Shown piece by piece: positions 15,456-39,111 of a stretch of DNA of 41,626 nt. The DNA is from a virus (lineage: Duplodnaviria; Caudoviricetes). Position 1 is the stretch's first letter. Each line of letters starts with the position of its first letter. Made by a program: the position numbers and the translations under genes. The notes under the pieces are model-generated. The model worked only from the letters and a program-made list of their open reading frames with translations. It was not told the DNA's origin and searched no databases. Location: positions 1-41,626 of IMG/VR virus record IMGVR_UViG_3300042348_000322; one strand, 5' to 3'.

Positions 15456-15484
15456 ATTATATGGCCTCTACTAGACTTTGTCAA
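15456..15484 (-). promoter_or_regulatory. sigma70 promoter
   Basis: TTGACA-17 bp-TATAAT on the minus strand, perfect consensus. Confidence 0.85.
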
Positions 15485-17133: not shown

Positions 17134-17308
17134 TTTGTTTCTCCATGATGTGAATGATTGAAACGCGAGCTATACGAAGCTCCACAATGGCCAAGTTTAT
17201 TTGATCTATCGCTGGATTGAAATCCTCTTGTAGCAACAAATCGTGCGATGTTTTCATCGCCCGCTCTGCCATCATCAAAGGGCGAGCGTAATCAATTAGT
17301 TCTGTCAT
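17090..17308 (-). CDS. Hypothetical protein
   Basis: 72 aa from ATG 17308 (MTELIDY), with AAGG upstream. Tightly packed with neighbours. Confidence 0.65.
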   Translation of the reverse strand: MTELIDYARPLMMAERAMKTSHDLLLQEDFNPAIDQINLAIVELRIARVSIIHIMEKQNALREQIQTLQKRI

Positions 17309-17456
17309 TTTGTACCTTCTTATTTCTGCTTTCTCGTAAAAGCTTTCGCACCCATTTGCTCTTGCCAAGTTTTACGTATTCCTCATACTCACTCGGAGTT
17401 AAACGAACGCCTATGGTTTTGCCGTTCTTGGTTAACTCACTTTTTGGTCTAGGCAT
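17292..17456 (-). CDS. Small ribbon-helix-helix-like DNA-binding protein
   Basis: MPRPKS...TIGVRLTPSEYEEY...SKWVRKLL fits the strand-helix-helix pattern. GGGAG RBS. Confidence 0.55.
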   Translation of the reverse strand: MPRPKSELTKNGKTIGVRLTPSEYEEYVKLGKSKWVRKLLRESRNKKVQNDRTN

Positions 17457-20171: not shown

Positions 20172-22000
20172 TAACAATCTCCATAGTTGCGGGCCATCCC
20201 AGACTCGCAATCAAGCGGCAAGGTCAGAGCCCAAGGGGGTGGTGTACGCATACACGCTTCGATGTAAGCCCGAGCTTCGTCAGCCTCGTTCTCTGGTACT
20301 ACGCAAGCCACAGCGTCATGCACGGTCAGCACAACTCGATAGCGTTTTTCGATTTGAATGATCTGCTCACCAATAATGCAACGGGCAACAGCTTGGCACA
20401 GGTTCTCGGCAACCTTACCGCCGTATATCTTGTTTGGTTTATTGCGTGTTTCGTAGGTGAATTGGCCGTTGGTGTTTCGACGCAACTCAGGGTAGTTGAG
20501 GTACAGGCCATTGGGTAGGGGGATTCCCGTGAACGGGGAAGTTTCCATGAGTCCAACTGAATCCACCTGCACTGGCTTGTTGGCCACGATAGATGTCAGC
20601 ACCAAGTTCAAATGGTTCCACCACTCTGCAATACGGCGGTTTACACCACGGTACTGCTTGATGATGAAACGGCAAGTGTCTATATCTAACTCTTTGCCCA
20701 TGTTGGACAACTGAGCTTGAAACTTCTCCGCGCCCATTCCGTACCCCGCGCCAAGTACGGTTGTTTTCCCAATAAAACGCTGATCCGCAGTAACTTCATG
20801 CTCAAAAGTCCCATAGATCGCGGACGCCATGTGCTTATACACGTCGGCTTTTCTACGGAACAACTCCAAGATGTACGTCTCGCCCGCCAGCCACGCCAAC
20901 ACACGCGCTTCAATCTGGGACGAGTCGCAGTCGATAATTACATGGCCCGCTGGGGCAACGATACAGCGCTTGAGCTTGCCGCCCTCAGAGCCACGGCTTG
21001 GAAGGTTTTGCAGATTGACCTTGTCAGACCCGCCCCACCGCCCTGTGTGCGCGGCGTAATATTTCAAAGGAATAGGGAGACGATGAAGCGCCCCGCAGAT
21101 GTGCCCCCTGCGTGATATCTCGATGAACCGCTCTGTCCTTGTCTCTTCCAGCGTTGACTTCGCACCAATACGCGCCGCCACAATAGCTTGCACTGCCTCG
21201 TTCGGATGCCCCAACAAATGCAAGAAGTCCTTGTCGCTCTTGGCAAAGGCATATATGAATTTGTCTGGGTTTGCGGGGCTGGGCTTCATTGGTGGCCTCA
21301 CGCCATATGATTTCAGCAGTTCAGCAAACTTGGCCGAGCTGTTCAAAACTTCTTTCGTTATCCCAGAATCAGTAAACAATTTGTCCTTGCGCTCACGGAC
21401 CGCTAACAAATGCTCTTCCAATTTCTGCGTATCAAGCTCCAGCAGTGGGTCGCTGAACATCCTGATCGTGATATCTATGAGTCGCTTCTCTTTGGTCGGG
21501 AATGTTGCATCGAGTTCTTTAAATAGCTTGTAGGTCAACTCCACATCGTTCTTGCAATACTCACCGTACTGCGCCAACTGTTGTGCCCCAAAGTCCTCTC
21601 TTCTCAATCCCTTAGCGTCATTGACTTCAAAGCCCTTTGCACCCAACCCAAAGTGTTCGACCAGCTTGGCCAAACTGCCGCCCACCTGAGTACCCAGCAG
21701 AGCCCGAGCCATAGACAGCGTATCCAACCATGCCTTGGGCTTCTGACCAAACACCCATGTCAGGATGGCCGCATCAAACATAGCGTTATGGGCTAACACG
21801 AAGTGGTTGTCCCAATCAAAGCCCGCCAGCCATTCAGCGGTCTCATCCATGTCACCCGTGAACCATTCAGCGGGTGCATCGTTCACCTTGACCGCCACGC
21901 CCACAACTTGGAATTGTGGGTCGCGAACATATTCCTCTGTCGTTATTTTTGAGAGGCTGTAGTCTGCGGCGTAGTAAGTCTCAAAGTCTATGGTGATCAA
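20171..22000 (-). CDS. polA: Family A DNA polymerase with 3'-5' exonuclease domain
   Basis: ExoI DFET, HNAMFD, HTGR, NLQNLP, motif A DSSQIEARVLA, motif B RFIGKTTVLGAGYG, motif C VHD. Confidence 0.95.
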   Translation of the reverse strand: MITIDFETYYAADYSLSKITTEEYVRDPQFQVVGVAVKVNDAPAEWFTGDMDETAEWLAGFDWDNHFVLAHNAMFDAAILTWVFGQKPKAWLDTLSMARALLGTQVGGSLAKLVEHFGLGAKGFEVNDAKGLRREDFGAQQLAQYGEYCKNDVELTYKLFKELDATFPTKEKRLIDITIRMFSDPLLELDTQKLEEHLLAVRERKDKLFTDSGITKEVLNSSAKFAELLKSYGVRPPMKPSPANPDKFIYAFAKSDKDFLHLLGHPNEAVQAIVAARIGAKSTLEETRTERFIEISRRGHICGALHRLPIPLKYYAAHTGRWGGSDKVNLQNLPSRGSEGGKLKRCIVAPAGHVIIDCDSSQIEARVLAWLAGETYILELFRRKADVYKHMASAIYGTFEHEVTADQRFIGKTTVLGAGYGMGAEKFQAQLSNMGKELDIDTCRFIIKQYRGVNRRIAEWWNHLNLVLTSIVANKPVQVDSVGLMETSPFTGIPLPNGLYLNYPELRRNTNGQFTYETRNKPNKIYGGKVAENLCQAVARCIIGEQIIQIEKRYRVVLTVHDAVACVVPENEADEARAYIEACMRTPPPWALTLPLDCESGMARNYGDC

Positions 22001-22395
22001 GGGCTCGTCCCAATTAATACATTGCGCAAAGCTTTGTTCAATTCCTCATTGACCACGGCGTTCATCTGTTGCTGGTACATACTTTGTTGGGATGGGACTG
22101 TGCCGTTCCACATTGCTGTAGTTATGCCTGTCGTTCCTTTTGGCTGTATCACAACTCCAAGTTGGGGTTGGAGATTAAGCACCAACTCCATAGCTTCATT
22201 CAAAGCCAAATCCCGCTTGGCGCGGCGATAAGCTCGTTGAAGCATGTAGCGTTCGTAGCGCGAAAAGCCACGCGAGTCGGCAAGGCTATCCAGCTTTCTT
22301 AGGTGACTGGCATCAAACTCTCCGTCAAACTTTTCAAGGACGGCTTTAAGTTGATCGGGCAGTGGGTAACGCAGAAGTTTCTCAGTGAATTTCAT
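21997..22395 (-). CDS. Hypothetical protein
   Basis: ORF from ATG 22395 with GAGG RBS, overlapping the pol start. Confidence 0.65.
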   Translation of the reverse strand: MKFTEKLLRYPLPDQLKAVLEKFDGEFDASHLRKLDSLADSRGFSRYERYMLQRAYRRAKRDLALNEAMELVLNLQPQLGVVIQPKGTTGITTAMWNGTVPSQQSMYQQQMNAVVNEELNKALRNVLIGTSP

Positions 22396-22726
22396 TCTTG
22401 AACACCTCATTCAGAGTTTGAAAAATAGTCGCGCTGTCAATCGCGATCATCACGTCCTTGAGATGATCAAGGTTGCCCTCGTTTATCACAAGGGCCGCGC
22501 CTCCCGCGCCGCGAATACGCTGGAGTTCACGATCTTGCAAGGCTGTGGTTTTTCCCTTGCCCGCTTTGCATTCGATGGCTACAAAGTAGCCATGAGCGCA
22601 GACTATGATGTCTGGTATACCTGCACGGCCTAAACCGTTTGAGGCTGGGAAGAAGTAGTATGCGTCATGCTGTTTCAGTATTTCAACGCATTGATTTTTT
22701 ACTTTTCTCTCTGGGGTCAAGGCCAT
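22382..22726 (-). CDS. VRR-NUC domain nuclease (Holliday junction resolvase-like)
   Basis: PERKVK...GIPDII...AIECKA...LQ. Start at ATG 22726 with AGGAG RBS, downstream of a promoter. Confidence 0.85.
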   Translation of the reverse strand: MALTPERKVKNQCVEILKQHDAYYFFPASNGLGRAGIPDIIVCAHGYFVAIECKAGKGKTTALQDRELQRIRGAGGAALVINEGNLDHLKDVMIAIDSATIFQTLNEVFKNEIH

Positions 22727-22748
22727 TATTCTCTCCTGTATGGCCTCT

Positions 22749-22777
22749 AATATAGGGGTGGCTTTAGACTTTGTCAA
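22749..22777 (-). promoter_or_regulatory. sigma70 promoter for the replication operon
   Basis: TTGACA-17 bp-TATATT with an A-tract upstream. Confidence 0.8.
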
Positions 22778-22808
22778 GTCTTTTTTGTAGGGGTATCCAC
22801 TATACACC

Positions 22809-22837
22809 GAACAAAGCGACATCGTGTCGGTTTGTTC
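22809..22837. repeat. 29-bp palindrome, copy 1
   Basis: GAACAAAGCGACA TCG TGTCGGTTTGTTC. Confidence 0.95.
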
Positions 22838-22841
22838 AGGC

Positions 22842-22868
22842 AAAAAAAGACCCGCACATAGGCGGGTC
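22842..22868 (-). terminator. Intrinsic terminator ending the early operon
   Basis: Minus strand GACCCGC-CTATGT-GCGGGTC-TTTTTTT. Confidence 0.85.
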
Positions 22869-22889
22869 GTAAAGGGTGTAGCTGTTAAG

Positions 22890-23774
22890 TTATATGACGA
22901 TGTGGAAATTAGTGTCGTTGTATCTAAAGCCTACATCACGCACTACCTCTCCGTCTTGCATAAGCTGTAGTACAGCTAAGCGGTTCTGCCATGTCTCAGA
23001 CAGTTGGTCAAACTCCATAACTTCTATGTTGTCTGTTTGCTTGTCTTTGTACAAGTACAGCCCGTTGTGTATACACACAGTCGTCATTCCGTCGTTGGCC
23101 AAAAGCTGCTCCATCTCCATCGCTAACTCATACTGAGCCATGTGCTCCTCGTACTTGGGCGACTCAAAGATATCTCTGACCGGCCTGTTTATGCCGTCAG
23201 GTATGGGCAAGTTCCGGACTACACAGAACACATACTTCTGTAACATCACTTCATCTTTGATCATAGCTGATCTACTGATCGGAGCCTTCAAGTCACGCAA
23301 GGAATAGTAGGTGGCGTTACGCGCCTCATCGTCTGCCTTTTTGATGATCTCGTCGTAGTTCATCTTGACAAACAACTTCTTGATCTTGCGGACAGCAATA
23401 TCAAGCTTCTCGGTACTTGTAACATGTCGCGAGCCTCGCTGTTTCTCAATGCGCCACGACTCGATGTCATAGGTGTCGGTGTTCTTGCGCCCGTACCTGT
23501 GACTCACAGAGATACTACCAAGCTGTTCCCCGCCCGCTATGACATTGACTCGTCTGAGAAACTGCTTGCCATCGGGTGCGGTGATTAAGTCCCCGTCGGC
23601 ATTTCGTTTGTTGCCCATAGCGTTGGTGTAATTCCACTGGTCGTGTCTCTTCCAAGAGAATATCCAGTTCGAGTTGTCGAGCGCGAGCTTACGCACCAGT
23701 TCATCAAGCATCGGGTCAAGGATGCGGTTGTCAGGTAATTGAATGTTTGCAAACTGTGTCATGCGGTTCACCAT
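22890..23774 (-). CDS. Hypothetical protein
   Basis: 294-aa ORF coupled to the upstream gene. Confidence 0.8.
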   Translation of the reverse strand: MVNRMTQFANIQLPDNRILDPMLDELVRKLALDNSNWIFSWKRHDQWNYTNAMGNKRNADGDLITAPDGKQFLRRVNVIAGGEQLGSISVSHRYGRKNTDTYDIESWRIEKQRGSRHVTSTEKLDIAVRKIKKLFVKMNYDEIIKKADDEARNATYYSLRDLKAPISRSAMIKDEVMLQKYVFCVVRNLPIPDGINRPVRDIFESPKYEEHMAQYELAMEMEQLLANDGMTTVCIHNGLYLYKDKQTDNIEVMEFDQLSETWQNRLAVLQLMQDGEVVRDVGFRYNDTNFHIVI

Positions 23775-24640
23775 TGAAATTTGTTAAGGATGTCATCGAC
23801 GCTATGCTTCAACTCAGCGCGAGCGCTAGGTATCTTGCGTAGGTCTTCGGGGTCAATGCCGTTGATCGCTTTCTCCAGCATACGACGAGCTTCTTCAAGC
23901 GCTGGGTCTTTCATCACATTCAGCACAGATAACAGACCGCACAACTCCAAGGCGTTGTTGACCAGACTGTCTCTGAATATGTTGCGCTTGCCGTCCTCGT
24001 TGTCGGTCAGCGTTTCACTCATTCTCGACAGCATCTTGTGCAGTCGTGTCCAAGGGTCACGCATGGCCTCGTTCATCTTGTTGTTGAACATCTTGTCGTA
24101 CTGCTCGGCCAAGTCTTGACGCACCTTGTCCTCGCATTGGATACGGAAGTCACCCTTCTCTGGAACAGGAAGGAAGTTGTACTCAAACTTGAAGCGACGG
24201 GGCAATGACGCCACATCAGGAAACTCTGATGCGTCGAAATACTTGCCGAGCTTGAAGGCTTGGGCGCTAACCAACGTCGGATAAGCTAGTATGAAGTCAT
24301 CGACTAAAGCGTTGAAGTTGGCTTCCATCGTCCCGAGTTGCTCACGATACGCAAAGAAGTTCTCCATCGGCAACAAGCCAATGCCTTTCATCCACGGCAG
24401 AGTCTGTGTGCCGTTCCACGCGCGGCACTTCGCCGCATACTTCTCTATTTTGCTGAGATGATCACTGCCCGCCATGAGGTACTTGTAGACAGAGCTTGCG
24501 TCTTGGTCAGCTTCTTTGGCTGTGTTCAAGTCCGCAGTGGTTTCCTTATCGCGCTTGCGAGCAGTCCATGTACTGATACGCAATTCAACAAGCATCGCCA
24601 TAGAAGCGAGCGATATGGATGGGGTTTCAAAAGTTTGCAT
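23768..24640 (-). CDS. DUF3150-like protein
   Basis: MLVELRISTWTARKRD...TLPW...RD/SL pattern. Family call is from recall and from context next to the AAA/VWA genes. Confidence 0.65.
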   Translation of the reverse strand: MQTFETPSISLASMAMLVELRISTWTARKRDKETTADLNTAKEADQDASSVYKYLMAGSDHLSKIEKYAAKCRAWNGTQTLPWMKGIGLLPMENFFAYREQLGTMEANFNALVDDFILAYPTLVSAQAFKLGKYFDASEFPDVASLPRRFKFEYNFLPVPEKGDFRIQCEDKVRQDLAEQYDKMFNNKMNEAMRDPWTRLHKMLSRMSETLTDNEDGKRNIFRDSLVNNALELCGLLSVLNVMKDPALEEARRMLEKAINGIDPEDLRKIPSARAELKHSVDDILNKFQW

Positions 24641-24671
24641 TTATCTCTCCAAGATAGGTTGGTTTAGAAAC

Positions 24672-24700
24672 GAACAAAGCGACACCATGTCGGTTTGTTC
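24672..24700. repeat. 29-bp palindrome, copy 2
   Basis: GAACAAAGCGACA CCA TGTCGGTTTGTTC; overlaps the stop codon of 24699..25757. Confidence 0.95.
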
Positions 24701-25757
24701 AAAGCACAGGTCCGAGTTCCGTTAGAAACTCAGAGTTCTGTTTGGTTGGCACTTCGCCCACGGCTAAAGGGACTTTCCTAAAGCAGTCATCAAAGTGCAA
24801 GAACAGCGCAATGTCACCGAGATACTTCACGGCTTTCTCACGATTCAGTACAAAATTAACACCCCAGTGCTTGTCTGCAACCCGATAGTGTTTGCGCTCT
24901 GCTTCATGATGTTTGAGTACATTCAACGCATGTACCCAGTTGTCGCTTAGCGGGCCTGTGACCCACTCGTACAACTTAGCGCATCCGTTTCTGTCGAATC
25001 CGTTGTGTCTCGCACCACGCCAGTTTGCGCTACCGCCATGAGGAAAGTGCTGTCTGCTGTGGTTGATGTCCCATCTGTTTGGCGATTCACTCCAAGCTTT
25101 GGTCTTCGTGAACGCTTCATATTCATCCTCGTCCATCAAACCAACCGCTTTGAACAAGATACCCTTGGACGATTCGACTTCCTTAACGGCTTGGTCATTG
25201 GTCTCGGGCGCAATGGACTGCACCAGATCAACCCATTCAAGGAACGGCTCGCACAGTTTGAGATACTTCTTCTCCGACCCGCGAATCTTTCGGATAGCGT
25301 ACTCCACGAGAACATCAATCATCTCGAAAGAATCACCCGTCTTTCTAAACTTGATCGTCTCGCCCGCTCGCAATATGTAAGACTTCTCGCCCATGTTGCT
25401 GGTCACCAACAATCGGCCCTTGTCCCAACTGAAGCCAATCCCCATCGGAACAAATTGCTGGATGTTGTTGGGCACATACGCAGAGTAGTACACGGGAGAA
25501 TGAATCGTGAATGTGTCGTCCGACTTCCAAACCACAAGCGGGTGCTTGTAGTAATTCAGACAGACCGTGTCGTCATCAGGCATGGAGATGCTCGCCATGT
25601 TCCAATGCTTGCGACTACCAAGTGGCACAGCATAGTTTGACTGCTTGCTGTTGATCGGCTTGGTGTTCTTGAACTTCGCAACATACTCAGCGAACGACTG
25701 ACGCATCACCACGCCCGCTGTGTTGTAGTTGCTGTAATAACTTGCGTATCCCATCAC
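24699..25757 (-). CDS. Hypothetical protein
   Basis: 352-aa ORF with AAGGA RBS. Confidence 0.8.
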   Translation of the reverse strand: MMGYASYYSNYNTAGVVMRQSFAEYVAKFKNTKPINSKQSNYAVPLGSRKHWNMASISMPDDDTVCLNYYKHPLVVWKSDDTFTIHSPVYYSAYVPNNIQQFVPMGIGFSWDKGRLLVTSNMGEKSYILRAGETIKFRKTGDSFEMIDVLVEYAIRKIRGSEKKYLKLCEPFLEWVDLVQSIAPETNDQAVKEVESSKGILFKAVGLMDEDEYEAFTKTKAWSESPNRWDINHSRQHFPHGGSANWRGARHNGFDRNGCAKLYEWVTGPLSDNWVHALNVLKHHEAERKHYRVADKHWGVNFVLNREKAVKYLGDIALFLHFDDCFRKVPLAVGEVPTKQNSEFLTELGPVL

Positions 25758-25915
25758 GCTTTCCTTTCAATAAAGAGAGAAATAAGGTGGCGAACCACCT
25801 GTCCGTTTGTGGGCTCGAAGCCCATTGCACCAATGAGTTGGCCTCTCACGACTTGTAAGAGATCAAAGGTTTCTTTGTTAAGGGTCACTGAGTACCCAGT
25901 TTTTGAGTTAGTCAT
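25754..25915 (-). CDS. Small ribbon-helix-helix-like protein (not in ORF track)
   Basis: 53 aa, MTNSKTGYSVTLNKETFDLLQVVRGQLIGAMGFEPTNGQVVRHLISLFIERKA. ATGA and GTGA overlaps with both neighbours, GGAG RBS. Confidence 0.65.
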   Translation of the reverse strand: MTNSKTGYSVTLNKETFDLLQVVRGQLIGAMGFEPTNGQVVRHLISLFIERKA

Positions 25916-26166
25916 CGCTTGTTTTTCTCCGCAAGAATCTTCATGTTGCTGTCGATCTCAAGTTGCAGTACACCCGATATAGGCGCGATGGTCGCCGCCT
26001 GTGGGTCGGGGTCACCTATTGCGTTGCACTTGTTTGAGTCCTGTCCTTGAATCCATGCGTTGTGTATGCGTGACGCACCGCACAGCACCCTTGAAATACT
26101 CAAGGCTTCATCCATGCTCAACAAGAACCTCTTATCTCCAATAAAGAGAATTACCTGATCATCCAT
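25912..26166 (-). CDS. Hypothetical protein
   Basis: 84 aa, AGGAGG RBS. Confidence 0.75.
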   Translation of the reverse strand: MDDQVILFIGDKRFLLSMDEALSISRVLCGASRIHNAWIQGQDSNKCNAIGDPDPQAATIAPISGVLQLEIDSNMKILAEKNKR

Positions 26167-26599
26167 TTGTACCTCCTAATACAAGGAACCAAGAAAATAA
26201 AGGGCTGTCTTCGTGACAAGTCACAATGCAGGCCATGCCCTCCGTGATAAACGACATTACATACTTGTCGTATGTATGTATGGGTCGCTTGGCTAAGAAC
26301 CACCGAAACTCTTCGAGCCCAGCGACTGTAACGAGATCATCATCCGTTAAGCGAGCATTGGTTATCGCCGCTCGCAAACCAAGATGATGAATCTCTGTCG
26401 GGTGGAAGAGAGCATCGCCATCTATGTCCATCATCAACTTCAAGCCCGCTGGGTTGACGCGAACATAGAAGTAGACATGGTCATGGAGGAACCTCACCTC
26501 ACCCTTGACAAGCATGGGGACATGGTGCTCAGCAATGTGATACCACTCCCCACACTCGACATGCGGGTCGTCGTCATATAACAACAAGCTTCTGTCCAT
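26159..26599 (-). CDS. Hypothetical protein
   Basis: ORF from ATG 26599 (GAGG RBS). The longer track start overlaps the VWA gene too far. Confidence 0.6.
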   Translation of the reverse strand: MDRSLLLYDDDPHVECGEWYHIAEHHVPMLVKGEVRFLHDHVYFYVRVNPAGLKLMMDIDGDALFHPTEIHHLGLRAAITNARLTDDDLVTVAGLEEFRWFLAKRPIHTYDKYVMSFITEGMACIVTCHEDSPLFSWFLVLGGTNG

Positions 26600-27866
26600 T
26601 GGGGACCTCGTAGCTGTCGTTACCGATGATGCACCACAAGGTAGGCGCAGTAACAGCCGCCCACTTGCTCTTGTTGGTGTGCATGTAGCCATCACTCAAC
26701 ATGATCAGCGCATCAGGCTTCAACTGCTTCTCTACCATCAGGTCAACCACAACATCTGGGTTTGTGCCGCCACCACCCTTGGGGTTGGTGCGATGCACGA
26801 TGTCTTTCACACCACCAGTAAAGATTTCGTGCGCTTGAATTTCAGCGTCCCAATACACGATGTCTAGTCGGTCTATGCCCATGCTCTTGACAAGCCCGTT
26901 CATCTCAGAGAGAAACTCTGTGAGTAACGGCCCTTCCACAGAACCAGATGTGTCCATCGCCAAAACCAAGTACTTCACTCGCTTGCCGATGATGCTAGGC
27001 AATATCACATCCTGCCAAAGGAAGTTGCGATGCGCCTTGCGCCAAGAGATTGAGTCTCTGTCCTTGATGTGAGAACGGGCGAAGCGTTGGAGTACATCTT
27101 TCCAACTGACCTTGGGATTGAGTAGCTCGCCAATCTCGCGTGGTGTCTTGCCGCCAAACTTGCCCGCATAGATACCGCCCTGACGAATAGCTTGCTCGAC
27201 TTCCTGATCGAGTTGCTTCTTCTCTTCCTCGCTCAAGGCTTGTGCGCCATCCCAATCGTGGTTGTCGAAACCGACATCGCCCTCACCGAACAAATCGACA
27301 TCTTGTCCTTTTGTTCCGTCTTGCCCGTCACGCTTTGGACCACGACCCGAACCATCAATGGGCGGACCATCACCATCGCATCCTTCTTTCTTTTTCTTCA
27401 AGAGGATGTCGAAGACCTGCTTGGTGTCCATGCCACGATACGCCTCGTCGAAGAGACCCTCACGCTCACCTGTTTCTTTAGAACGGGGAAAGGCTATGAA
27501 TTTTTCTTCTGGGTCCATGTCATACAACTGTATGTTGATGACAAAGTCACACGCCGCATTCGTAAGTCTGCGGTCAATAGCATCCAATGCTTTCCATGTG
27601 GTCAGGTGTCGGTAACACTTGTGCATGTTCTCGTGCATGATGAGAAACGCCAGCTCTTTGTCAGTCAAAGAGTCAACGAATTCTCTGCCATACACAGCGT
27701 CCCTGCCGTTCGTGCCCGCTGTGATCTTCTGATCGGTTACTGTGGTAGACCCGACCATGAACAAGCCCGCGAAGAAGGCAAACGACTTCTCTCGCATCAG
27801 GCTCACATGAACCAGCTCGATTCGTTTCTCGGCTGGCAATTTACTTCTGACAACTGCAATACTCAT
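26574..27866 (-). CDS. Metallopeptidase (HExxH)-VWA domain protein (DUF2201-like)
   Basis: TAGTNG, HENMH, NAACD..IN, acidic/Gly linker, MIDAS DTSGS, GGGT, LSDG. Confidence 0.9.
   Translation of the reverse strand: MSIAVVRSKLPAEKRIELVHVSLMREKSFAFFAGLFMVGSTTVTDQKITAGTNGRDAVYGREFVDSLTDKELAFLIMHENMHKCYRHLTTWKALDAIDRRLTNAACDFVINIQLYDMDPEEKFIAFPRSKETGEREGLFDEAYRGMDTKQVFDILLKKKKEGCDGDGPPIDGSGRGPKRDGQDGTKGQDVDLFGEGDVGFDNHDWDGAQALSEEEKKQLDQEVEQAIRQGGIYAGKFGGKTPREIGELLNPKVSWKDVLQRFARSHIKDRDSISWRKAHRNFLWQDVILPSIIGKRVKYLVLAMDTSGSVEGPLLTEFLSEMNGLVKSMGIDRLDIVYWDAEIQAHEIFTGGVKDIVHRTNPKGGGGTNPDVVVDLMVEKQLKPDALIMLSDGYMHTNKSKWAAVTAPTLWCIIGNDSYEVPNGQKLVVI
27288..27316. repeat. 29-bp palindrome, copy 3 (intragenic)
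   Basis: GAACAAATCGACA TCT TGTCCTTTTGTTC. Confidence 0.9.
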
Positions 27867-28048
27867 GATGTCTCCTTCATGTGTGCTTTGAAATCCGCGA
27901 CGAGGGCGTCGCGCATCTTGTCATCCTCCATTAGGGCCTTGATAAAAATCTTGGCCCCATACTCTTGTTGTTTGTATTTAAGGGCAAAGGCTGTCGCCAA
28001 TACCGCCCAACAAAACAAAATTATTTCTGTGATTGATACTTCAATCAT
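27863..28048 (-). CDS. Small membrane-anchored hypothetical protein
   Basis: 61 aa, hydrophobic N-terminus, GGAG RBS. Confidence 0.7.
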   Translation of the reverse strand: MIEVSITEIILFCWAVLATAFALKYKQQEYGAKIFIKALMEDDKMRDALVADFKAHMKETS

Positions 28049-28188
28049 TTGACATCTCCATTTGCTTTAACTTCCAACACCCACAACTCAAGGTAGTGGG
28101 CTTCCTCGTCTTTGCCTAGCTTCCTGAGAAGCTCGGCCAGCTTCATGCCGTGATCGTAAATACTCGCAATGATCTGTTCATGCGTCAT
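28045..28188 (-). CDS. Small hypothetical protein (not in ORF track)
   Basis: 47 aa, MTHEQIIASIYDHG...; ATGA overlaps at both ends. Confidence 0.6.
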   Translation of the reverse strand: MTHEQIIASIYDHGMKLAELLRKLGKDEEAHYLELWVLEVKANGDVK

Positions 28189-28430
28189 CGTTTAACCCTC
28201 ACAGATTTACCTTCCATATCAAACTCATACTCAGGGAACTGAGCATCCAACTGCTTGGCCATGCGAGCCATGATTGTTGTGGCTTGCAATGTCAAACCGC
28301 GAGACTCCAACACCTCGCCCGCTGTGGCTTTCTTGTTGTAGATCAGCTTGTGGGTATGGTCTTGCATACGCTTGTATGTGGCGACCATGCCACGCCATAC
28401 GATCTTTGCTTCAGTGATATTCGTAATCAT
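28185..28430 (-). CDS. Hypothetical protein
   Basis: 81 aa from ATG 28430, AGGAGAG RBS. Confidence 0.7.
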   Translation of the reverse strand: MITNITEAKIVWRGMVATYKRMQDHTHKLIYNKKATAGEVLESRGLTLQATTIMARMAKQLDAQFPEYEFDMEGKSVRVKR

Positions 28431-28591
28431 TATTTCTCTCCTGTTGTTGGTGAACATTCCGACACCGTGTCGTTTTGTTCGTCGTTTACCTGCACACTGA
28501 TGATGCGCACACCATCAAAGATTTGGACAATCTCGTAGTCCGCGCCCGCTTTGTCGAGCGCATCGTAAAGCTCTGCTGGTGTCATGTTCAT
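28430..28591 (-). CDS. Small hypothetical protein (not in ORF track)
   Basis: 53 aa, MNMTPAELYDALDKAGADYEIV...; TAATG coupling. Its C-terminus reads through palindrome copy 4. Confidence 0.6.
   Translation of the reverse strand: MNMTPAELYDALDKAGADYEIVQIFDGVRIISVQVNDEQNDTVSECSPTTGEK
28452..28480. repeat. 29-bp palindrome, copy 4
   Basis: GAACATTCCGACA CCG TGTCGTTTTGTTC. Confidence 0.95.
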
Positions 28592-28680
28592 GGTCTCCAG
28601 TAAAAAACATCTAGCCCGACGATGACCAAACCGATCACCACCAACGTGTACAACATAGCGTTGAAAGTTTTGTCGTTCAT
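28588..28680 (-). CDS. Small single-pass membrane peptide (not in ORF track)
   Basis: 30 aa, MNDKTFNAMLYTLVVIGLVIVGLDVFYWRP; ATGA overlap downstream. Confidence 0.55.
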   Translation of the reverse strand: MNDKTFNAMLYTLVVIGLVIVGLDVFYWRP

Positions 28681-28682
28681 GC

Positions 28683-29762
28683 TCAACCTTTCAATCCGGC
28701 AAACATGTACTGATTCTCACGCGCCCATGTAACAAAGGCGGGATGAGACATGACCCATGCTTTCTTTGTGGGAATCTCGAGGATGCTGTTGATGAAGACA
28801 GCCTGAGTTTCTTTGGGCAGCCGCTTGATGTAGCGCATCCATGTGGCGAATGTCTCACGGGTAGACACAGACACAGCCTTGAACGCCAAGATACATTGAG
28901 CCGCTGGGCTGGTGGGGACAAGCGCAGACTCAGGGTTGGCAAGAATGGAATCAGTCATCGGCAGCTGATCTGCGAGCGAGATGTACGCTTGCAAATCACG
29001 CGACGCCGCCCGCCCGATAGTGCCATCAAGTGCCGCGATCAACGCATTCTCTGTGATGTTTTGACGCACAGTAATCCAATGCGAGGCCTTGTACGCAGTG
29101 CGGGGGCAGAAGTACGCCTTCTGTGACGCATCGGTGGGGTTGAAGATGTATGGGTTCTCTTTCTGCCCGCCATCCAAGTAGGACGCCATGCAGTGCGGGT
29201 ATTCCTTGACCCACGCTTGCATCTCAGGTGCTACATCGTTGTTCGCCGCCCAACGCAACCACTCTTCAGCCGTTGGCTTGAAGTAGTTGATCTCGGTCTG
29301 ACGGCTACGGGTGTGAGCCTTGGTGTGGTCGCCCACGCCATCACTGTCCATATTGCCCGTCGTGAAGACGATAGTCTCGGGGTGCAGTTTGTAAGTACCT
29401 AGTCTGCGCTCATGCAACAGGGGGTGTAGCGTGTTACGCGTGTAGTCCTCGGTCTTTGTCCACTCGTCGATCATGATGACTTGCGGTTCGTCAAGGTGCA
29501 AGCCGTAGTAATCGGTTGGGTAGAAGTCCAAGGTGCGAGTCGCGTGGTTGGGGATTGGCATACCAGACTGGCCGACATCGGTGTTTGGTCCGTCGATGTA
29601 CACCTTGCGGTAGCCTGTGCGCTCAACGATTGTGTCCTGAATGGCAGTCTTGCCAACACCGGGTTCGCCAGTAAGGTGCACTGCGTTAGGACCCGCGTTA
29701 AGAAGCAGGTCAACAGTCTCGGTGAAGTTGAGTCTGCGCATGAAGTTGATCTCGTTTGACAT
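28683..29762 (-). CDS. MoxR-like AAA+ ATPase
   Basis: Walker A GEPGVGKT, Walker B IMIDE, sensor TGN, CPRT. VWA partner gene downstream. Confidence 0.9.
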   Translation of the reverse strand: MSNEINFMRRLNFTETVDLLLNAGPNAVHLTGEPGVGKTAIQDTIVERTGYRKVYIDGPNTDVGQSGMPIPNHATRTLDFYPTDYYGLHLDEPQVIMIDEWTKTEDYTRNTLHPLLHERRLGTYKLHPETIVFTTGNMDSDGVGDHTKAHTRSRQTEINYFKPTAEEWLRWAANNDVAPEMQAWVKEYPHCMASYLDGGQKENPYIFNPTDASQKAYFCPRTAYKASHWITVRQNITENALIAALDGTIGRAASRDLQAYISLADQLPMTDSILANPESALVPTSPAAQCILAFKAVSVSTRETFATWMRYIKRLPKETQAVFINSILEIPTKKAWVMSHPAFVTWARENQYMFAGLKG

Positions 29763-29791
29763 TTGATTTCCTTGATAAGAAAGATTTACAA

Positions 29792-29820
29792 GAACATACC
29801 GACACCATGTCGGTTAGTTC
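29792..29820. repeat. 29-bp palindrome, copy 5
   Basis: GAACATACCGACA CCA TGTCGGTTAGTTC; contains the stop codon of 29814..30098. Confidence 0.95.
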
Positions 29821-30098
29821 GATGAGCGGGTGTTTTTCTGATTCGTGTCCATCAGAACCTGCGGCGCGGCTTCTGGTGTAACGAGCATGTACGGCCCCTT
29901 GCCGTATGTCTGCACCACACACCAAGATGCGCGGTCAGAGATTGCGGCGTCTTGCCCGCAATGTAAACACAACCTGTAGCCAAGAGCCCAGCGTTGTGCA
30001 TGGACATCGTCCCCACAATGGGTGCACGACATCCATTCGAAACGATCACAACCCTGTCGTTGATCGTCATCCAATTCTGTAGAAATGGGATATAGCAT
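29814..30098 (-). CDS. C4 zinc-finger protein (DksA/TraR-like spacing)
   Basis: CTHCGDDV..QRWALG...CLHCG. Confidence 0.7.
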   Translation of the reverse strand: MLYPISTELDDDQRQGCDRFEWMSCTHCGDDVHAQRWALGYRLCLHCGQDAAISDRASWCVVQTYGKGPYMLVTPEAAPQVLMDTNQKNTRSSN

Positions 30099-30322
30099 TA
30101 GTAACGAAGACCGGTGTTGGGGTCGATCAAGCCGCTGGTCAAGCCAAGGCGTTGGTAGTGGGCGAACAACACGGACACGCTGGCAAAGCTGTCAGCGACT
30201 TCCTTGTCAGTAACAAGGCCCGACACCCAAAGCTGTGCGACATCGCGCATGGCCCTGTGGACCTCGATCAGTTTCTCGTTGGTGCATGACAGGTCAGTCA
30301 TGTTGTCAGTTGCTATCTTCAT
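30098..30322 (-). CDS. Hypothetical protein, first gene after the 30.47-kb promoter
   Basis: 74 aa from ATG 30322 with GGAG RBS; TAATG coupling downstream. Confidence 0.65.
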   Translation of the reverse strand: MKIATDNMTDLSCTNEKLIEVHRAMRDVAQLWVSGLVTDKEVADSFASVSVLFAHYQRLGLTSGLIDPNTGLRY

Positions 30323-30353
30323 AATGATCTCCAATAAAGGACTTTGAATCGCC

Positions 30354-30382
30354 GAACAAACCGACATGATGTCGGAATGTTC
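30354..30382. repeat. 29-bp palindrome, copy 6
   Basis: GAACAAACCGACA TGA TGTCGGAATGTTC. Confidence 0.95.
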
Positions 30383-30461
30383 AGCATCGGTGCGCTTTCG
30401 CACACCTGCGGCTTTTAGATGTGGTGTCGTCGTCATCACTCACCAATGTATCTAAAGATAC

Positions 30462-30490
30462 ATTGTACCACAAAATAACTCATTTGTCAA
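30462..30490 (-). promoter_or_regulatory. sigma70 promoter with overlapping inverted repeat
   Basis: TTGACA-17 bp-TACAAT. CAATGTATCT-AA-AGATACATTG (30444-30465) overlaps the -10 box and start site. Confidence 0.8.
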
Positions 30491-30530
30491 GGGGGTCGTT
30501 CGTGTTTTAAACATGAAGTTCCCATGCCCG

Positions 30531-31193
30531 CTAGTTTCGTTCTGACTTAGCTTTGCGTTGCGCGGAGATGTGGTCGATCATTTGGTCCAACCCAAATTCG
30601 ATCTCGTCCCATGACGGCCCCTCATCCTTCACCTCTTGGGTGACTGGTTTCGGCTCATCCCGCAGTTTGATCTTGAGCACGGGCTTGCCTTCCGTAGCCG
30701 TGGGTAGGTCGCGCTTATTCTTGGGAATAGCGAATCCCTTGGTTTTGAGGATTCCATCGGTGTCGTAGCCCGCGAGGGATGCACTGTCCATCAGTATCTT
30801 GATATGGCGCGGGTCTTTGGGGCGCATGTCGATCAACTCGTCATCGGGCGGGGCGATCAGGTGGCGGGTGGATTCTTGCTCGGGCAACAGATCGTTGGGG
30901 AAGCCTGACGCAAACCGCTTGACCCTGTACATCTTGGACTCGCAATGGTGGTACGGATTGACGCACCACTTCGTACCGCACATGTTCATCAAGCGTGGGC
31001 CAGCGGGCGGGAAGCGGCAGATCGTGAACAGGATACGCAAGACAGCGTTTGTGTTGAACTTGTATGTCAGGGGCGAATGAGGGGAGAGCATGGGCAGAGA
31101 ACAGGATGACTTAGGCCAGACATAGCAAAGGTTCTTGACCTCGCAGTTGTCCAAGAGGTTGTCAGCGTTGAGGTACTTTTGAGGGCGGGGCAT
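30531..31193 (-). CDS. Degenerate His-Me finger (HNH_3-like) protein
   Basis: 220 aa from ATG 31193 (AAGGA RBS). CYVW and MNMCGTKWCVNPYH motifs. Confidence 0.6.
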   Translation of the reverse strand: MPRPQKYLNADNLLDNCEVKNLCYVWPKSSCSLPMLSPHSPLTYKFNTNAVLRILFTICRFPPAGPRLMNMCGTKWCVNPYHHCESKMYRVKRFASGFPNDLLPEQESTRHLIAPPDDELIDMRPKDPRHIKILMDSASLAGYDTDGILKTKGFAIPKNKRDLPTATEGKPVLKIKLRDEPKPVTQEVKDEGPSWDEIEFGLDQMIDHISAQRKAKSERN

Positions 31194-31243
31194 GGAAATT
31201 TCCTTTTTGAGAGTTTTACACCGTATACCATATATCCGTGGTA

Positions 31244-31271
31244 ATTCTATTATATTTGGCGTGGCTGTCAA
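31244..31271 (-). promoter_or_regulatory. sigma70 promoter
   Basis: TTGACA-16 bp-TAGAAT, about 50 bp upstream of ATG 31193. Confidence 0.6.
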
Positions 31272-31305
31272 TAGGGGTAAGGGTTTATCGGGATAAGATA
31301 AAGGG

Positions 31306-31454
31306 TATAAAACGTTGTTCCTGAAATTGAGATAGTGAGAACGGGAGAAAGAGGGCGAGAGGTGAAACACGCTATTCTCAACTTTTTCTATGTTTGGAGG
31401 GGAGATTCCTAGACCCGCTTTATACTATGCCCATTTCAGGAACAACGTCTTATA
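31306..31454. repeat. 149-bp element bounded by 31-bp inverted repeats
   Basis: Left arm TATAAAACGTTGTTCCTGAAATTGAGATAGT; reverse complement of right arm TATAAGACGTTGTTCCTGAAATGGGCATAGT (27/31 identical). Confidence 0.85.
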
Positions 31455-31750
31455 TATTATATTAAATTATTTTATTATTATAGAGAAACCTAGGAAATTC
31501 GGGGCTTGCGCACTAGCGCCGCCTTGCGGGAGGGGTCGGATAGGATATAGTTAGTAACGATATACGGTATAAGATGTAGTTGCTACGGGGTGGAAACTAC
31601 GGCGTTACTGGGTTAATGAAGATTAAAGTATGCGTTTGGAGGGGCAATGCCCGCTGGAATGATAAACCAAGCCGTGCAATGCGGTATAAGCGACGCCCGC
31701 TTTGCACTTGGTGGGCGGGCCAAGCGGTCTGCGTCATAACTAAAAGTAAT

Positions 31751-31779
31751 GAACAAACCGACAATGTGTCGCTTTGTTC
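31751..31779. repeat. 29-bp palindrome, copy 7
   Basis: GAACAAACCGACA ATG TGTCGCTTTGTTC. Confidence 0.95.
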
Positions 31780-31794
31780 GCTTTGCCCGCAATG

Positions 31795-31955
31795 CAAGGC
31801 TACCCCGTTCCTACCTGTGACTGGTATCTAGCGATACGGGCGGGGCGGGCGACTCACCGCCAAGCCAGCCGCGCTCGCCAAGGCTACCGCGTTACTGCCA
31901 CAATCTATTCTAAAGAACAGAGCTACCGCGTTACTACCACCAAGTGACTGGCATC
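31795..31955 (+). repeat. Degenerate direct repeats (GCTACCGCGTTACTRCC-like) x3
   Basis: Copies at about 31799, 31883 and 31922; two are followed by GTGACTGGYATC. Confidence 0.75.
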
Positions 31956-31982
31956 AGGGCGGGCCGCGCCGTCGCGCAGGCC

Positions 31983-32010
31983 AAAAAAAATCGGGGGCCG
32001 AAGCCCCCAA
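31983..32010 (-). terminator. Intrinsic terminator
   Basis: Minus strand GGGGGC-TTCG-GCCCCC-GA-TTTTTTTT (cUUCGg tetraloop). Confidence 0.9.
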
Positions 32011-32013
32011 AGG

Positions 32014-32184
32014 TTAGTCAGGTGTGTATTCCAATTCCCAAAGAATCAGGACATGAAGCCCAATAAAAGTTATCACAAAGACCAGCATCTCGACCGCGCC
32101 AATGAGCCCGAAAAGCCCGCAACCAATCGACACGATGGCCATCAGCAAAGACGCAAACCCAACCCAAGACAAAAATGTACGCAT
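32014..32184 (-). CDS. Small two-helix membrane protein (not in ORF track)
   Basis: 56 aa, MRTFLSWVGFASLLMAIVSIGCGLFGLIGAVEMLVFVITFIGLHVLILWELEYTPD. GGAG RBS, followed by a terminator. Confidence 0.7.
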   Translation of the reverse strand: MRTFLSWVGFASLLMAIVSIGCGLFGLIGAVEMLVFVITFIGLHVLILWELEYTPD

Positions 32185-32196
32185 GGAAAACTCCAG

Positions 32197-32216
32197 AAAA
32201 AAGCCCCCGAAGGGGC
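32197..32216 (-). terminator. Intrinsic terminator
   Basis: Minus strand GCCCC-TTCG-GGGGC-TTTTTT. Confidence 0.75.
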
Positions 32217-32223
32217 GTGAAGG

Positions 32224-32421
32224 TTAATGAACGCGCACAAGCTTGGAAAGCTTGGCGTAGCGAATCCAGACCTGAGCGGGCACGGCATCCCGAACGCTCA
32301 AGTATTGACCCGAAACGGCACAGCGGAAATCCTTGCCCGCTTGCCAGTCCGCCTTAACAGCGGCCGCAGATTTATAGTCCCGCCCGTAGGCGGGCACGGC
32401 ATGAATGTCGCGCCCGCTCAT
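32224..32421 (-). CDS. Hypothetical early protein
   Basis: 65 aa, PAYGRDYKS....ADW..GKDF pattern; starts 3 bp after the upstream stop. Confidence 0.7.
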   Translation of the reverse strand: MSGRDIHAVPAYGRDYKSAAAVKADWQAGKDFRCAVSGQYLSVRDAVPAQVWIRYAKLSKLVRVH

Positions 32422-32424
32422 GGG

Positions 32425-33195
32425 TTAGCCCAAGGCCAAAGAGGCCGCAGTCAAACGCGCGAGGCTTTCGACCGAACCGGCTTTTGCCCACTCAGCCGCA
32501 CGCTTGCGCAAGGCCTCATGGATGACTTTGATGTCAGCCTGCAACTGTTCTAGCTCGGGCTTTTCCCTGCGCTCGATTTCTTTCGCAATGGCCGTGGCCT
32601 CGCGCATCGACTTGACATCGCCCTTTGCGACCAGCTCGGCTTTCAGGTCGGCCAACTCGCCATCGCCCTTGTCCGCGAACTTAGCCGCATCAGCCGCACG
32701 CTTAGCCGCCATGCGCTCAGCATCGACCGACTTAGAACGAGGCCGCTCGAAACCAAGCCCGACCAGTCTATTGACTTGCCGCTCGAATTGCTTGTCAGCC
32801 GCATCAGTAGATGCCGCGCCGCAGTCAAAGTACTTGGCCACGCCCCATGTCCGAACCTGAAGGTACTCAGGGTAAGAGATAGGCACGAACGCCATGATCG
32901 GCTTGCCATCCTTCAAGACGGGCTCGCCCTTGATGTCGCACTTGGCGCGACGCATTTTGACGAACTTGCCGTCTACTGTTTCCCACTGGCACAGCCAATC
33001 CAACAGCAGGGCATCAGCCGCATCGCGCGCGTCTTGACCACGCGACATCAGCTTTTCAGCGTCAGCCGCATTACCAAAGATTTCCTCAAGAGAGGATTGT
33101 GCTTCGACCAAGGAACGGCCGCAGATCGACTCGACCACGGAACCAACTGCGCTTTGTGCGGGCGCAGTAACCGCTTGAGTGGCTTTGTTTGCCAT
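32425..33195 (-). CDS. Hypothetical Ala-rich protein, first gene of the leftward arm
   Basis: 256 aa from ATG 33195, GGAG RBS. Confidence 0.8.
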   Translation of the reverse strand: MANKATQAVTAPAQSAVGSVVESICGRSLVEAQSSLEEIFGNAADAEKLMSRGQDARDAADALLLDWLCQWETVDGKFVKMRRAKCDIKGEPVLKDGKPIMAFVPISYPEYLQVRTWGVAKYFDCGAASTDAADKQFERQVNRLVGLGFERPRSKSVDAERMAAKRAADAAKFADKGDGELADLKAELVAKGDVKSMREATAIAKEIERREKPELEQLQADIKVIHEALRKRAAEWAKAGSVESLARLTAASLALG

Positions 33196-33231
33196 GATGT
33201 ATTCTCCAAGTAAAGGTCGGGCAAAACGCCC

Positions 33232-33261
33232 GAACAAAGGGACAGGAATGTCCCTTCATTC
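33232..33261. repeat. Divergent palindrome, copy 8
   Basis: GAACAAAGGGACA GGAA TGTCCCTTCATTC (4-bp spacer, ATTC in place of GTTC). Confidence 0.6.
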
Positions 33262-33296
33262 AGCACAGCGGGCATCACCCCTCTGTCCATGTAGTA

Positions 33297-33305
33297 ACTA
33301 TATCA
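33297..33305 (-). promoter_or_regulatory. Possible extended -10 promoter
   Basis: TGA-TATAGT (TGn + -10) about 100 bp upstream of ATG 33195; no good -35. Confidence 0.3.
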
Positions 33306-33716
33306 AACTGGCAAAACTTAGGGGAAAACCGCACACAGGGTAACGACGCAATGCAAGGAAAGATAAAGCCCGCAATGTACGATCCACGCCCGCCAGCCAG
33401 ACGCAGAAGCCTAAAAAAATCGCGTCTCTTCCTCCGACTAGGTGGTAGAAAATCGCGACGCTTTCTCCGGCCATACCCCTTCTTAAATCCTGGGTGGAGA
33501 ACTCCACGACCCCCCACCACCCCAAATTTCATTAAGGGGGACCCCACATACATACACAGTGTTTTGCACACCCGGTGAGCAAAATTTAAAAACAGGGGGG
33601 AGGGGGGTATAAAAATTTTGGGGTTCTGCCGGTAGCACTCCACCAGAAACACCCCCCGTCAAGGGGACCCAAAGCAGGTCATGTATAGAAAACGCCATAT
33701 TTTGTGCATGACGGGC

Positions 33717-33746
33717 TTGTCATGTATAGATTTTTTCTGTTACATT
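33717..33746 (+). promoter_or_regulatory. Possible late-operon promoter
   Basis: TTGTCA-18 bp-TACATT with TG extension. Overlaps one of two GTCATGTATAGA direct repeats. Confidence 0.45.
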
Positions 33747-33779
33747 CGCGCATCCTCTTTACGGAGTGCCCTTGAACAC

Positions 33780-34490
33780 ATGACAGTGCATTTGACGCCT
33801 GACAACACAGTTCCGTTTCCGGACAGCTTAGAACCGGAAGCGGGCGGGACGCTCCGCGAAAACATGCAGATCGCGGCAAACACTGCTGAAGTCCTCAAGG
33901 GACTGGGTGCGCAAGTAGAGGATGATCCTGAAGCGCAACTCAAAGCTGAGAACGTATTCAAAGACTTTTCGGAACTAGCTAAGCAACAGTACGAAGAAGC
34001 CATGCTTCCTAAGCGGGGCCGAGGTCGTCCACGCAAAGACCCGAACGCTGAGCCCGCTCCAAGTAAAACGCCCGCCCTGATGTACAACCTTCCCGTTGCC
34101 GAACGAATCGGTACGATGCTGCGGGAGTACAACAACCCAATCGTTGCAGATGCCGCCGAGCTTAGGTTAGTAGTCACTAACAAACTACTGGACCTAGCGT
34201 CATGCGGTGACCCACGGATCGAGATCAAGGCAGCGGAGATGCTGGGCAAGATCAGCGACGTGGGCCTCTTCTCCGAGAAGACCGAGATCACTGTTACGTA
34301 CAACAACGTGACTGACTTGGATCAGGCGATCAAGGATAAGGTGCGCAAGATGTTGCTGGCGCAAGGGGTTACCGATGTGACCCCCATCGACATTGATCTG
34401 GACAAAGAGTTTGGCCCCGCCGAAGAGCTAGAAATGGTTGAAGAGGTGCAGCCCGAGCCGCCCGTTGAGGATGAAGATGCGCAGAATTGA
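33780..34490 (+). CDS. terS: Putative terminase small subunit with AT-hook motif
   Basis: Immediately upstream of terL. IKAAEMLGKISDVGLF.EK.E motif and KRGRGRPRK. Start taken at ATG 33780. Confidence 0.65.
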   Translation: MTVHLTPDNTVPFPDSLEPEAGGTLRENMQIAANTAEVLKGLGAQVEDDPEAQLKAENVFKDFSELAKQQYEEAMLPKRGRGRPRKDPNAEPAPSKTPALMYNLPVAERIGTMLREYNNPIVADAAELRLVVTNKLLDLASCGDPRIEIKAAEMLGKISDVGLFSEKTEITVTYNNVTDLDQAIKDKVRKMLLAQGVTDVTPIDIDLDKEFGPAEELEMVEEVQPEPPVEDEDAQN

Positions 34491-38514: not shown

Positions 38515-38708
38515 ACGAGTACAAACTACTTGGTCCAATTTTTAACGAAATCCGCAAGCTGAAACAAGAGCGAGAAGCTTTTGTAGCGGCTGGGCGCTGT
38601 GATCACATTGAAGAGTACCGAAGAGTCTGCGGAGTTATCCAAGGTTTGAACTACGCAGAGAACATCATTGAAGACCTTGTGCAAAAAATGGAGAAAGCTG
38701 ATGACTGA
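38511..38708 (+). CDS. Small hypothetical protein
   Basis: 65 aa, AAGGAG RBS, EYRRVCGVIQGL motif; follows the portal gene. Confidence 0.75.
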   Translation: MNEYKLLGPIFNEIRKLKQEREAFVAAGRCDHIEEYRRVCGVIQGLNYAENIIEDLVQKMEKADD

Positions 38709-39111
38709 ATTTGACGTTGCTGCGGTTGATCTGACCGGCATTTTGAACAAAAGCGCCGAAGAAAAAGCCAAACAATTGCCTGATCCCAAGACTTTCCGTC
38801 TGTTGTGTGTTGTTCCAGAAGCTATGGAAGAGTACGCAGACAGCGAAGTTGGTCTACTCAAAGACTCAAAAACCATGCACTACGAGGAAGTACTGACCCC
38901 AGTACTGTTCGTTATAAAGCTTGGCCCCGATGCTTACAAAGACACTACCCGGTTCCCAAGTGGACCGAGCTGTAAGGAAGGTGATTTCATCATCGTCCGC
39001 CCCAATTCAGGCACTCGCCTGAAGATTCATGGCCGTGAGTTCCGCATCATCAACGATGACAGCGTGGAAGCGGTTGTGGAGGACCCCCGTGGTATCACGC
39101 GTGCTGCATAA
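38701..39111 (+). CDS. groES: GroES-like co-chaperonin
   Basis: VIKLGPDAY...CKEGDFIIV...GTRLKIHGREFRIINDDSVEAVV matches the Cpn10 C-terminal pattern. Confidence 0.85.
   Translation: MTEFDVAAVDLTGILNKSAEEKAKQLPDPKTFRLLCVVPEAMEEYADSEVGLLKDSKTMHYEEVLTPVLFVIKLGPDAYKDTTRFPSGPSCKEGDFIIVRPNSGTRLKIHGREFRIINDDSVEAVVEDPRGITRAA

Follow-up and report, generated by a model that had tools for sequence, protein, structure and literature searches.

Stoperator repressors have been described in the Cluster A mycobacteriophages L5, Bxb1, and TipsytheTRex and in the Streptomyces phage R4 (PMC9283540, PMC6550527, PMC10276819). Here we analyze a comparable array of sites in IMG/VR virus record IMGVR_UViG_3300042348_000322 (Duplodnaviria; Caudoviricetes), positions 1 to 41,626, a stretch referred to below as the window, in which 29-bp palindromes are scattered along one minus-strand arm of early genes. 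From comparisons of sequences, we newly propose a likely binder for this array, the product of the first early gene (32425..33195, minus strand), together with a candidate protein family with a putative residue-to-base code. The stoperator systems resemble the array in that the sites are many and lie mostly away from promoters, sites occur near the repressor's own gene, the site consensus diverges with the repressor, and each repressor has two DNA-reading parts, as is proposed here. The same reports describe stoperators as 13-bp, asymmetric, orientation-dependent sites, present at 20 to 30 per genome, that are bound by a monomer and maintain lysogeny, whereas the early-arm array consists of symmetric 29-mers, 5 to 11 per genome, limited to the early arm and paired with an apparently unrelated helical protein, with no lysogeny genes found. 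When compared with L5 Rep, the candidate binder gave no PDB sequence match and no significant fold match. In its proposed working the array resembles a stoperator system, but its differences in symmetry, range, and lifestyle place it outside that class. An earlier note on this DNA had listed stoperator-like roadblocks as one option; roadblocks are the best remaining reading, but true stoperator membership does not hold.

The repressor of the temperate phage phiC31 recognizes conserved palindromic inverted repeats that are present in many copies genome-wide. Like the array, phiC31 combines many palindromic sites with a phage repressor, but that repressor is different and larger. In RK2, dispersed ParB-type sites are bound by KorB. 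The ParB-type sites of RK2 and of the N15 centromere share with the array that the inverted repeats are dispersed and that the element itself encodes the protein binding them (PMC3235114). The first-step-transfer region of T5 is a delimited stretch that enters first and that carries cis signals as well as early genes directed at the host (10.1101/866236); T5 has one stop signal there, whereas here a coded array of sites runs across the arm and sequencing depth does not show a terminal repeat.

Sites in the window and in related genomes

A pattern scan of the window found seven exact copies of GAAC-N5-GACA-N3-TGTC-N5-GTTC, starting at 22809, 24672, 27288, 28452, 29792, 30354, and 31751, exactly as the earlier note had reported. 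When up to 3 mismatches to the 29-bp pattern were allowed, 9 matches were obtained, whereas 100 shuffled sequences averaged 0.23; the 3-mismatch matches at 21366 and 23741 were lost under a weight matrix. A half-site matrix that allowed 2 to 5 central bases added only 33232-33261, and a shuffled control gave none. This eighth copy, already recognized as divergent, is degenerate, has a 4-bp center, and scores 26 versus 39 to 45 for the other seven, and it is the positional homologue of the leader copy of the same gene in most relatives. Gaps between sites range from 0.56 to 2.6 kb, in agreement with the 0.6 to 2.6 kb given before. The fuller consensus is GAACA-N3-CGACA-N3-TGTCG-N3-TGTTC, and the arms of the window sites are paired at 10 to 12 of 13 positions.

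The window is a fragment of a virus, found in lake-water metagenomes, whose relatives measure 62 to 66 kb. It encodes a terminase, a portal, a large internal virion-type protein, a primase, a helicase, and a DNA polymerase, and the array occupies the minus-strand arm that carries the AAA_5 ATPase, DUF2201, and DUF3150 genes. Since the window is only part of this phage type, confinement of the sites had to be judged on complete relatives. Nine of nine relatives (92 to 100% completeness) had their sites, 5 to 10 each compared to 0 to 1 in shuffled controls, confined to the early arm, as in the window and as had been claimed; every site lay in the interval bounded by the terminase small subunit gene and the nuclease gene at the head of the replication operon (564 bp of G015 were unscanned, G016 terminates inside the arm, and one G012 site is listed twice). 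Arrays were present in 43 of the 48 loci fetched by means of the ATPase.

Sites recur at the same positions: in the first-gene leader, before the ATPase gene, over stop codons, in the DUF2201 linker (35 sites of relatives fall inside this gene), and after the final terminator, with a site between that terminator and the next promoter in 30 of 31 genomes. Spacing across genomes has a median of 1,237 bp and a maximum of 2,879 bp (n = 173). No site center falls at -40 to +29 relative to a predicted start, while 35 fall at +30 to +89. For these position counts, as for the distance scan, column tests, trees, and contrasts presented below, the duplicates L082, L095, L099, and L112 were removed; loci with <4 sites were removed from all of these except the position counts. 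In the window, none of the sites overlaps any of four strong sigma70-type promoters, consistent with the earlier observation that no copy covers a recognized -35/-10 element. Leader copies in the window and in L093, L107, L118, L122, and L164 often have a 2- or 4-bp center or are degenerate, as if tuned to lower affinity.

Half-sites occur in different versions by lineage (GAAC..CCGACA, GAAC..CCAACA, GAAC..CGAAW, GGAA..CCCT, GGA..TCGACA, GAAR..CCGAC, GTGACA, and GGGACA), and four further versions in distant phages bring the number to about a dozen. Within each lineage, both arms of all copies change in concert. To measure pairing at the variable positions 5 to 8, we counted identical 29-mers once per class and compared the observed pairs with those obtained by shuffling among sites. 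Pairing was below chance in four of six classes (A, 145 versus 173; B, 53 versus 59; C, 47 versus 59; E, 143 versus 165), did not differ in two small classes, and was above chance in none, although these counts are not independent because the copies are orthologous. Such low pairing where the sequence varies favors a double-stranded DNA site over an RNA hairpin.

The same protein could instead read the sites as RNA hairpins, in the manner of lambda N, with a role in processing, antitermination, or translational control. Such hairpins would have 13-bp stems and a 3-nucleotide loop, many copies lie just before ribosome-binding sites, and terminators follow the first gene; a mild excess of G.U over A.C among sense-strand mismatches (111 versus 68) is also a point for RNA and weighs modestly against a duplex site. 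In addition to the below-chance pairing, however, the loop is not conserved, the two arms have near-equal base preferences, the sense strand folds lower in only 120 of 234 sites, and conserved copies are found in probably untranscribed DNA past the terminator or upstream of a promoter. Perfect palindromes make up 2 of the 234 sites, and Rfam gave 0 matches in window positions 22000-34000. We consider recognition as RNA improbable.

A candidate binder that covaries with the sites

Thirteen conserved genes were compared with site class. In a distance scan, the first early gene, 32425-33195, held the 8 best of 586 windows, and it had the best whole-gene partial correlation with site class (0.57). 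Residue 166 of its product was Arg in every one of the 17 genomes whose half-sites have C at base 4 (frequency of 0.49 to 0.98) and in none of the 14 genomes without C4 (frequency of ≤0.09), and no other column of 3,287 split this trait perfectly. The C4 trait changed 5 times on a neighbor-gene tree, and 5 of 5 independent pairs agreed (P = 0.0625); in 13 longer genomes, 3 other columns of 9,226, located in two virion genes, likewise split the trait. Residue 162 was Lys in 16 genomes with G2 and Met or Val in 15 with A2, and both R139 and R143 were present in 28 genomes with C12 and absent in 3 without it (2 and 2 to 3 independent pairs, respectively). Arg contacting the guanine opposite such C positions is usual recognition chemistry. 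The tree of the first gene required 5 class changes, the minimum, compared to 6 to 9 for eight other genes; one other gene also required 5, with fewer rows.

The residue-162 rule was also compared by eye with 32 further proteins, which are not independent. Twenty-eight fit, and the other four comprised two degenerate leaders that miss, one residue outside the rule, and one protein without a site. In the same out-of-sample set, R139 and R143 are missing from four proteins, each of which has a CGAA leader, and a CCCT site accompanies one protein with Lys139.

Several results count against this assignment. The independent contrasts are few (2, 2 to 3, and 5 pairs), and none reaches a P value of 0.05. 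DUF3150 also tracks the outer box, with 5 split columns and a partial r of 0.48 in fewer genomes, and for the CAAC class none of the helix columns passed the column test. The degenerate leaders L153 and L217 depart from the residue-162 rule, and the inner-box rule fails in L048, L218, and L220b/L222b/L225b. The candidate has 40 K+R and 40 D+E and so no net positive charge. Finally, the arrays in G006 and G010 have no detectable binder homologue, and the candidate proteins there gave no profile match. All points considered, the product of 32425-33195 very probably binds the sites.

The G006 locus has features of its own. Several near-identical promoter-gene-terminator cassettes lie upstream of the array (L066:14000-15500), and a 203-amino-acid gene with no match to the binder stands just before the first two sites.

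The candidate binders named in the earlier note fared less well, and 32425-33195 was not among them. The 53-amino-acid open reading frame (ORF) 25754-25915 shows no change of its strand motif among classes A, B, and C; ORF 30531-31193 does not vary in step with site class; the recognition helix of the helix-turn-helix (HTH) protein 13889-14113 is invariant from class to class; and 17292-17456, detected in just 3 of 13 genomes, could not be a general binder. The broader proposal of a double-stranded DNA site plus a binder is supported by the below-chance pairing, the position of the terminal site, and the residue-base covariation.

When clustered at 50% identity, the binder family comprises 199 clusters. 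Of three distant members taken as queries in protein searches, two gave 11 loci; a marine distant homologue gave no viral locus. Seven of the 11 loci show repeated, new 29- to 30-bp palindromes of the same geometry near the homologue gene, while the other 4 extend <3.5 kb past it. Because these phages share the ATPase arm, the pairing of homologue and array amounts to co-occurrence plus code and not to independence. Two tandem binder paralogues are found in L220, L222, and L225, and in L222 and L225 the sites start after the first and flank the second.

Database searches placed the binder in no described family. Pfam gave no family (sub-threshold Myb-like matches in 5 of 134 members), PHROGs gave matches for 2 of 94 and only to families of unknown function, no usable match was obtained in PDB sequences or GenBank phages, and all matches in the ESM Atlas were to unnamed viral clusters, under 0.9. 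No significant match came from the fold searches either (in VIA, the best Z score was 6.7 over 48 residues), which does not by itself establish a new fold. A literature search, with little coverage of subscription journals, found no paper on this array or protein. AlphaFold2 predicted a mostly helical binder with a predicted local distance difference test (pLDDT) score of 86 and a predicted template modeling (pTM) score of 0.54. The covarying residues R139, R143, M162, and R166 fall on two of the predicted helices, 130-145 and 157-172, which are joined by an extended linker; the isolated covarying region gave a pLDDT score of 92 and a pTM score of 0.53, as for two loosely linked parts. The predicted C-terminal helix spans 46 residues. 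We infer that the binder acts as a dimer, the sole basis being the symmetry of the sites.

An orphan site array is matched here with a specific unannotated protein family, and the putative code is testable, with Arg166 going with C4 and Lys versus Met at residue 162 going with G versus A at base 2. The dozen or so natural pairs of protein and long site are candidate orthogonal regulators.

Proposed silencing of the early arm

All promoters, genes, and terminators of the arm are on the minus strand, and sites are given without strand. A candidate extended -10 promoter of the first gene (TG-n-TATAGT, 33297..33305) was found by eye and missed by the promoter scan; it would put site 1 (33232..33261), which lies in the leader 37 bp before the ATG and is likely autoregulatory, at about +30 to +59. 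The first gene, encoding 256 amino acids, is followed by two terminator-like hairpins with T tracts (32203..32216 and 31991..32010) and by site 2 (31751..31779) in a long noncoding stretch. Sigma70-type promoters (11/12) precede ORF 30531-31193 (31244..31271) and site 3 (30462..30490), the latter site (30354..30382) lying ~75 to 100 bp downstream of the predicted start. Site 4 (29792..29820) covers the stop codon of a zinc-ribbon ORF, 30 bp before the AAA_5 (MoxR-type) ATPase gene (28683..29762), which lies inside the array; site 5 (28452..28480) is within the end of a 53-amino-acid ORF; site 6 (27288..27316) falls in the Gly/Asp-rich linker of the DUF2201_N/DUF2201 (von Willebrand factor A-like) gene (26574..27866); and site 7 (24672..24700) touches the stop codon of a 352-amino-acid ORF, 32 bp before the DUF3150 gene (23768..24640). 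The arm is closed by a terminator-like hairpin with a T tract (22842..22868). Site 8, the last (22809..22837), lies 4 bp past this T tract and 31 bp before the -35 element of the replication-operon promoter (22749..22777), which is outside the array and, like the early promoters, is sigma70-type.

We propose, with a probability of about one-half, that the first early protein binds the early-arm sites as a predicted dimer, roadblocks host RNA polymerase, and switches the arm off; if binding is granted, repression is somewhat favored. Each subunit would use two helices on a single 13-bp half-site: helix 130-145, through R139/R143, would read the inner CGAC box, and helix 157-172, through M162 and R166, would read the outer GAAC box. 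A basic F-x-R-P linker would span the A/T-rich bases between the boxes. The leader copy would give negative feedback on the first gene, and copies about every 1.2 kb would block elongation, so that the arm is silenced once the protein builds up. The last copy would back up the terminator, while the replication operon would stay on from its own promoter. If repression is true, a phage apparently using host RNA polymerase silences one arm while promoters of the same type elsewhere stay on; no phage RNA polymerase was found in 5 complete relatives, though the search control gave no match either.

An activator, or an early-to-middle switch that contacts RNA polymerase from upstream sites, would use the same binder differently. 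In the clade of the window, the center of the last site is at -81 relative to the replication promoter, and L226-L230 have a site upstream of the -35 element of the binder gene itself, with its center at about -61, a position that suits activation equally and so counts against silencing, as does the lack of any site from the promoter of ORF 30531-31193 to its end. Centers in the upstream sites range from -63 to -97 without helical phasing, however, and the majority of sites are far from any promoter. Blocking is favored over activation because the terminal site stays near the T tract, whereas the interval separating it from the following -35 element ranges from 13 to 47 bp, again without phasing. 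Activation therefore appears very improbable.

The early arm probably enters the cell ahead of the rest of the genome. In all 4 runs, contig depth rises to a peak at about 32 to 33.7 kb and then falls, which hints weakly at a genome end near 33.7 kb, although strain sharing could have the same effect. A joint at 30384-33281, seen in two runs, was considered as a deletion and rejected, since it matches a related-strain leader (compare L116). The earlier note had suggested that, if the genome end is near 33.5 kb, an injected protein binds sites on first-entering DNA; an injected binder may exist, but the covarying protein is the product of an early gene and not structural. The same binder might instead have a physical job, ratcheting, bridging, or compacting the first-entering 10 kb through its long C-terminal helix, so as to pull this DNA in, shield it, or anchor it, with repression as a side effect. 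The regular spacing of the sites, their being forced into a protein linker, the 46-residue helix, and the rise in depth would all suit such an organizer. It would leave unexplained the dozen specificity classes, the leader copy, and the fixed link to the terminator, and depth is not raised across most of the array, so the array is no long terminal repeat of the kind that T5 has. We regard this explanation as unlikely.

Under the silencing proposal, the same protein would also silence a second phage of the same code, and code switches would let phages escape. Because the arm probably enters first, such cross-silencing could drive repeated code switches; both the feedback silencing by roadblocks and the selection of code changes by cross-silencing between coinfecting phages are what we infer from these patterns. 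In its broadest form the idea is doubtful: a widespread group of apparently lytic phages would silence themselves, the first protein, a member of a new helical DNA-binding family with a two-helix code, coating the first-entering arm alone, shutting down the phage's own early genes, and stalling transcription, perhaps entry, of a same-code superinfecting phage, to give immunity groups without lysogeny. If repression is true, immunity-like diversification is possible without lysogeny genes. Among complete relatives, with positive controls (the window itself is incomplete), integrase was found in 0 of 4 and resolvase in 0 of 5.

These absences also bear on recombination sites for gene shuffling, which, with host decoys and centromeres, had been among the options. 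The 11-7-11 layout is like that of tyrosine-recombinase sites, and variable genes are flanked by sites. Site-specific recombination sites would be expected to have matching centers, whereas the central spacers differ among the seven exact copies, and no site-to-site joints were present among the joints listed. As for decoys that titrate a host protein, a GTDB scan showed no host-chromosome array of this class, and the code tracks a phage protein. Recombination sites and decoys are both scarcely probable.

The GTDB scan gave 13 loci. One, L193, is a related 60-kb phage contig in a Ca. Nanopelagicales metagenome-assembled genome, with a leader site before a binder homologue; its presence in that bin is either a host hint or a binning error. 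The other 12 have 1 or 2 near-perfect palindromes, mostly in Firmicutes, without the binder, and two of them lie in or near parA/parB. Near-perfect 13-3-13 palindromes with the same GACA/TGTC core (L203:8762-8892, L200:10001-10098, L003:1278-1306, L192, L197, L199, and L201), possibly parS-like, are located within or close to parA/parB, repA, and relaxase genes of mobile elements, most of which belong to Firmicutes. Those palindromes, and the dispersed centromere sites known from N15 and RK2, would suit a plasmid-like carrier state maintained through parS-like sites. Unlike ParB-type systems, however, the array comes with neither ParA nor a ParB_N domain (0 of 5 complete relatives, with working controls), and the binder has no ParB sequence or domain match. 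A centromere role is accordingly hard to credit.

Neighboring genes and further observations

Vcrx089, a related ATPase, helps IncC plasmids evade type I restriction on entry (PMC7498323). Since the relationship, at the level of the AAA_5 domain, is to an ATPase that acts at entry, the early arm may encode functions of the entry stage, for which brief expression would be enough.

The conserved ORF 30531-31193 (minus strand) encodes 220 amino acids with the motif C-x4-C-V-N-P-x-H and has no Pfam match; we take the motif to be HNH/His-Cys-nuclease-like but degenerate, without the usual catalytic His. Window positions 31270-31990, which contain site 2, are noncoding and by eye show short direct repeats, an A/T-rich block, and an inverted repeat, resembling a replication origin. 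In the replication arm, a 13-mer, TTGACAAAGTCTA, lies over the -35 elements of both promoters (22765-22777 and 15472-15484, minus strand). It is an imperfect inverted repeat that is kept in all site classes and is a possible operator for the class-invariant HTH protein 13889-14113. A GroES-like gene (38668-39111, plus strand) is located downstream of the portal gene.

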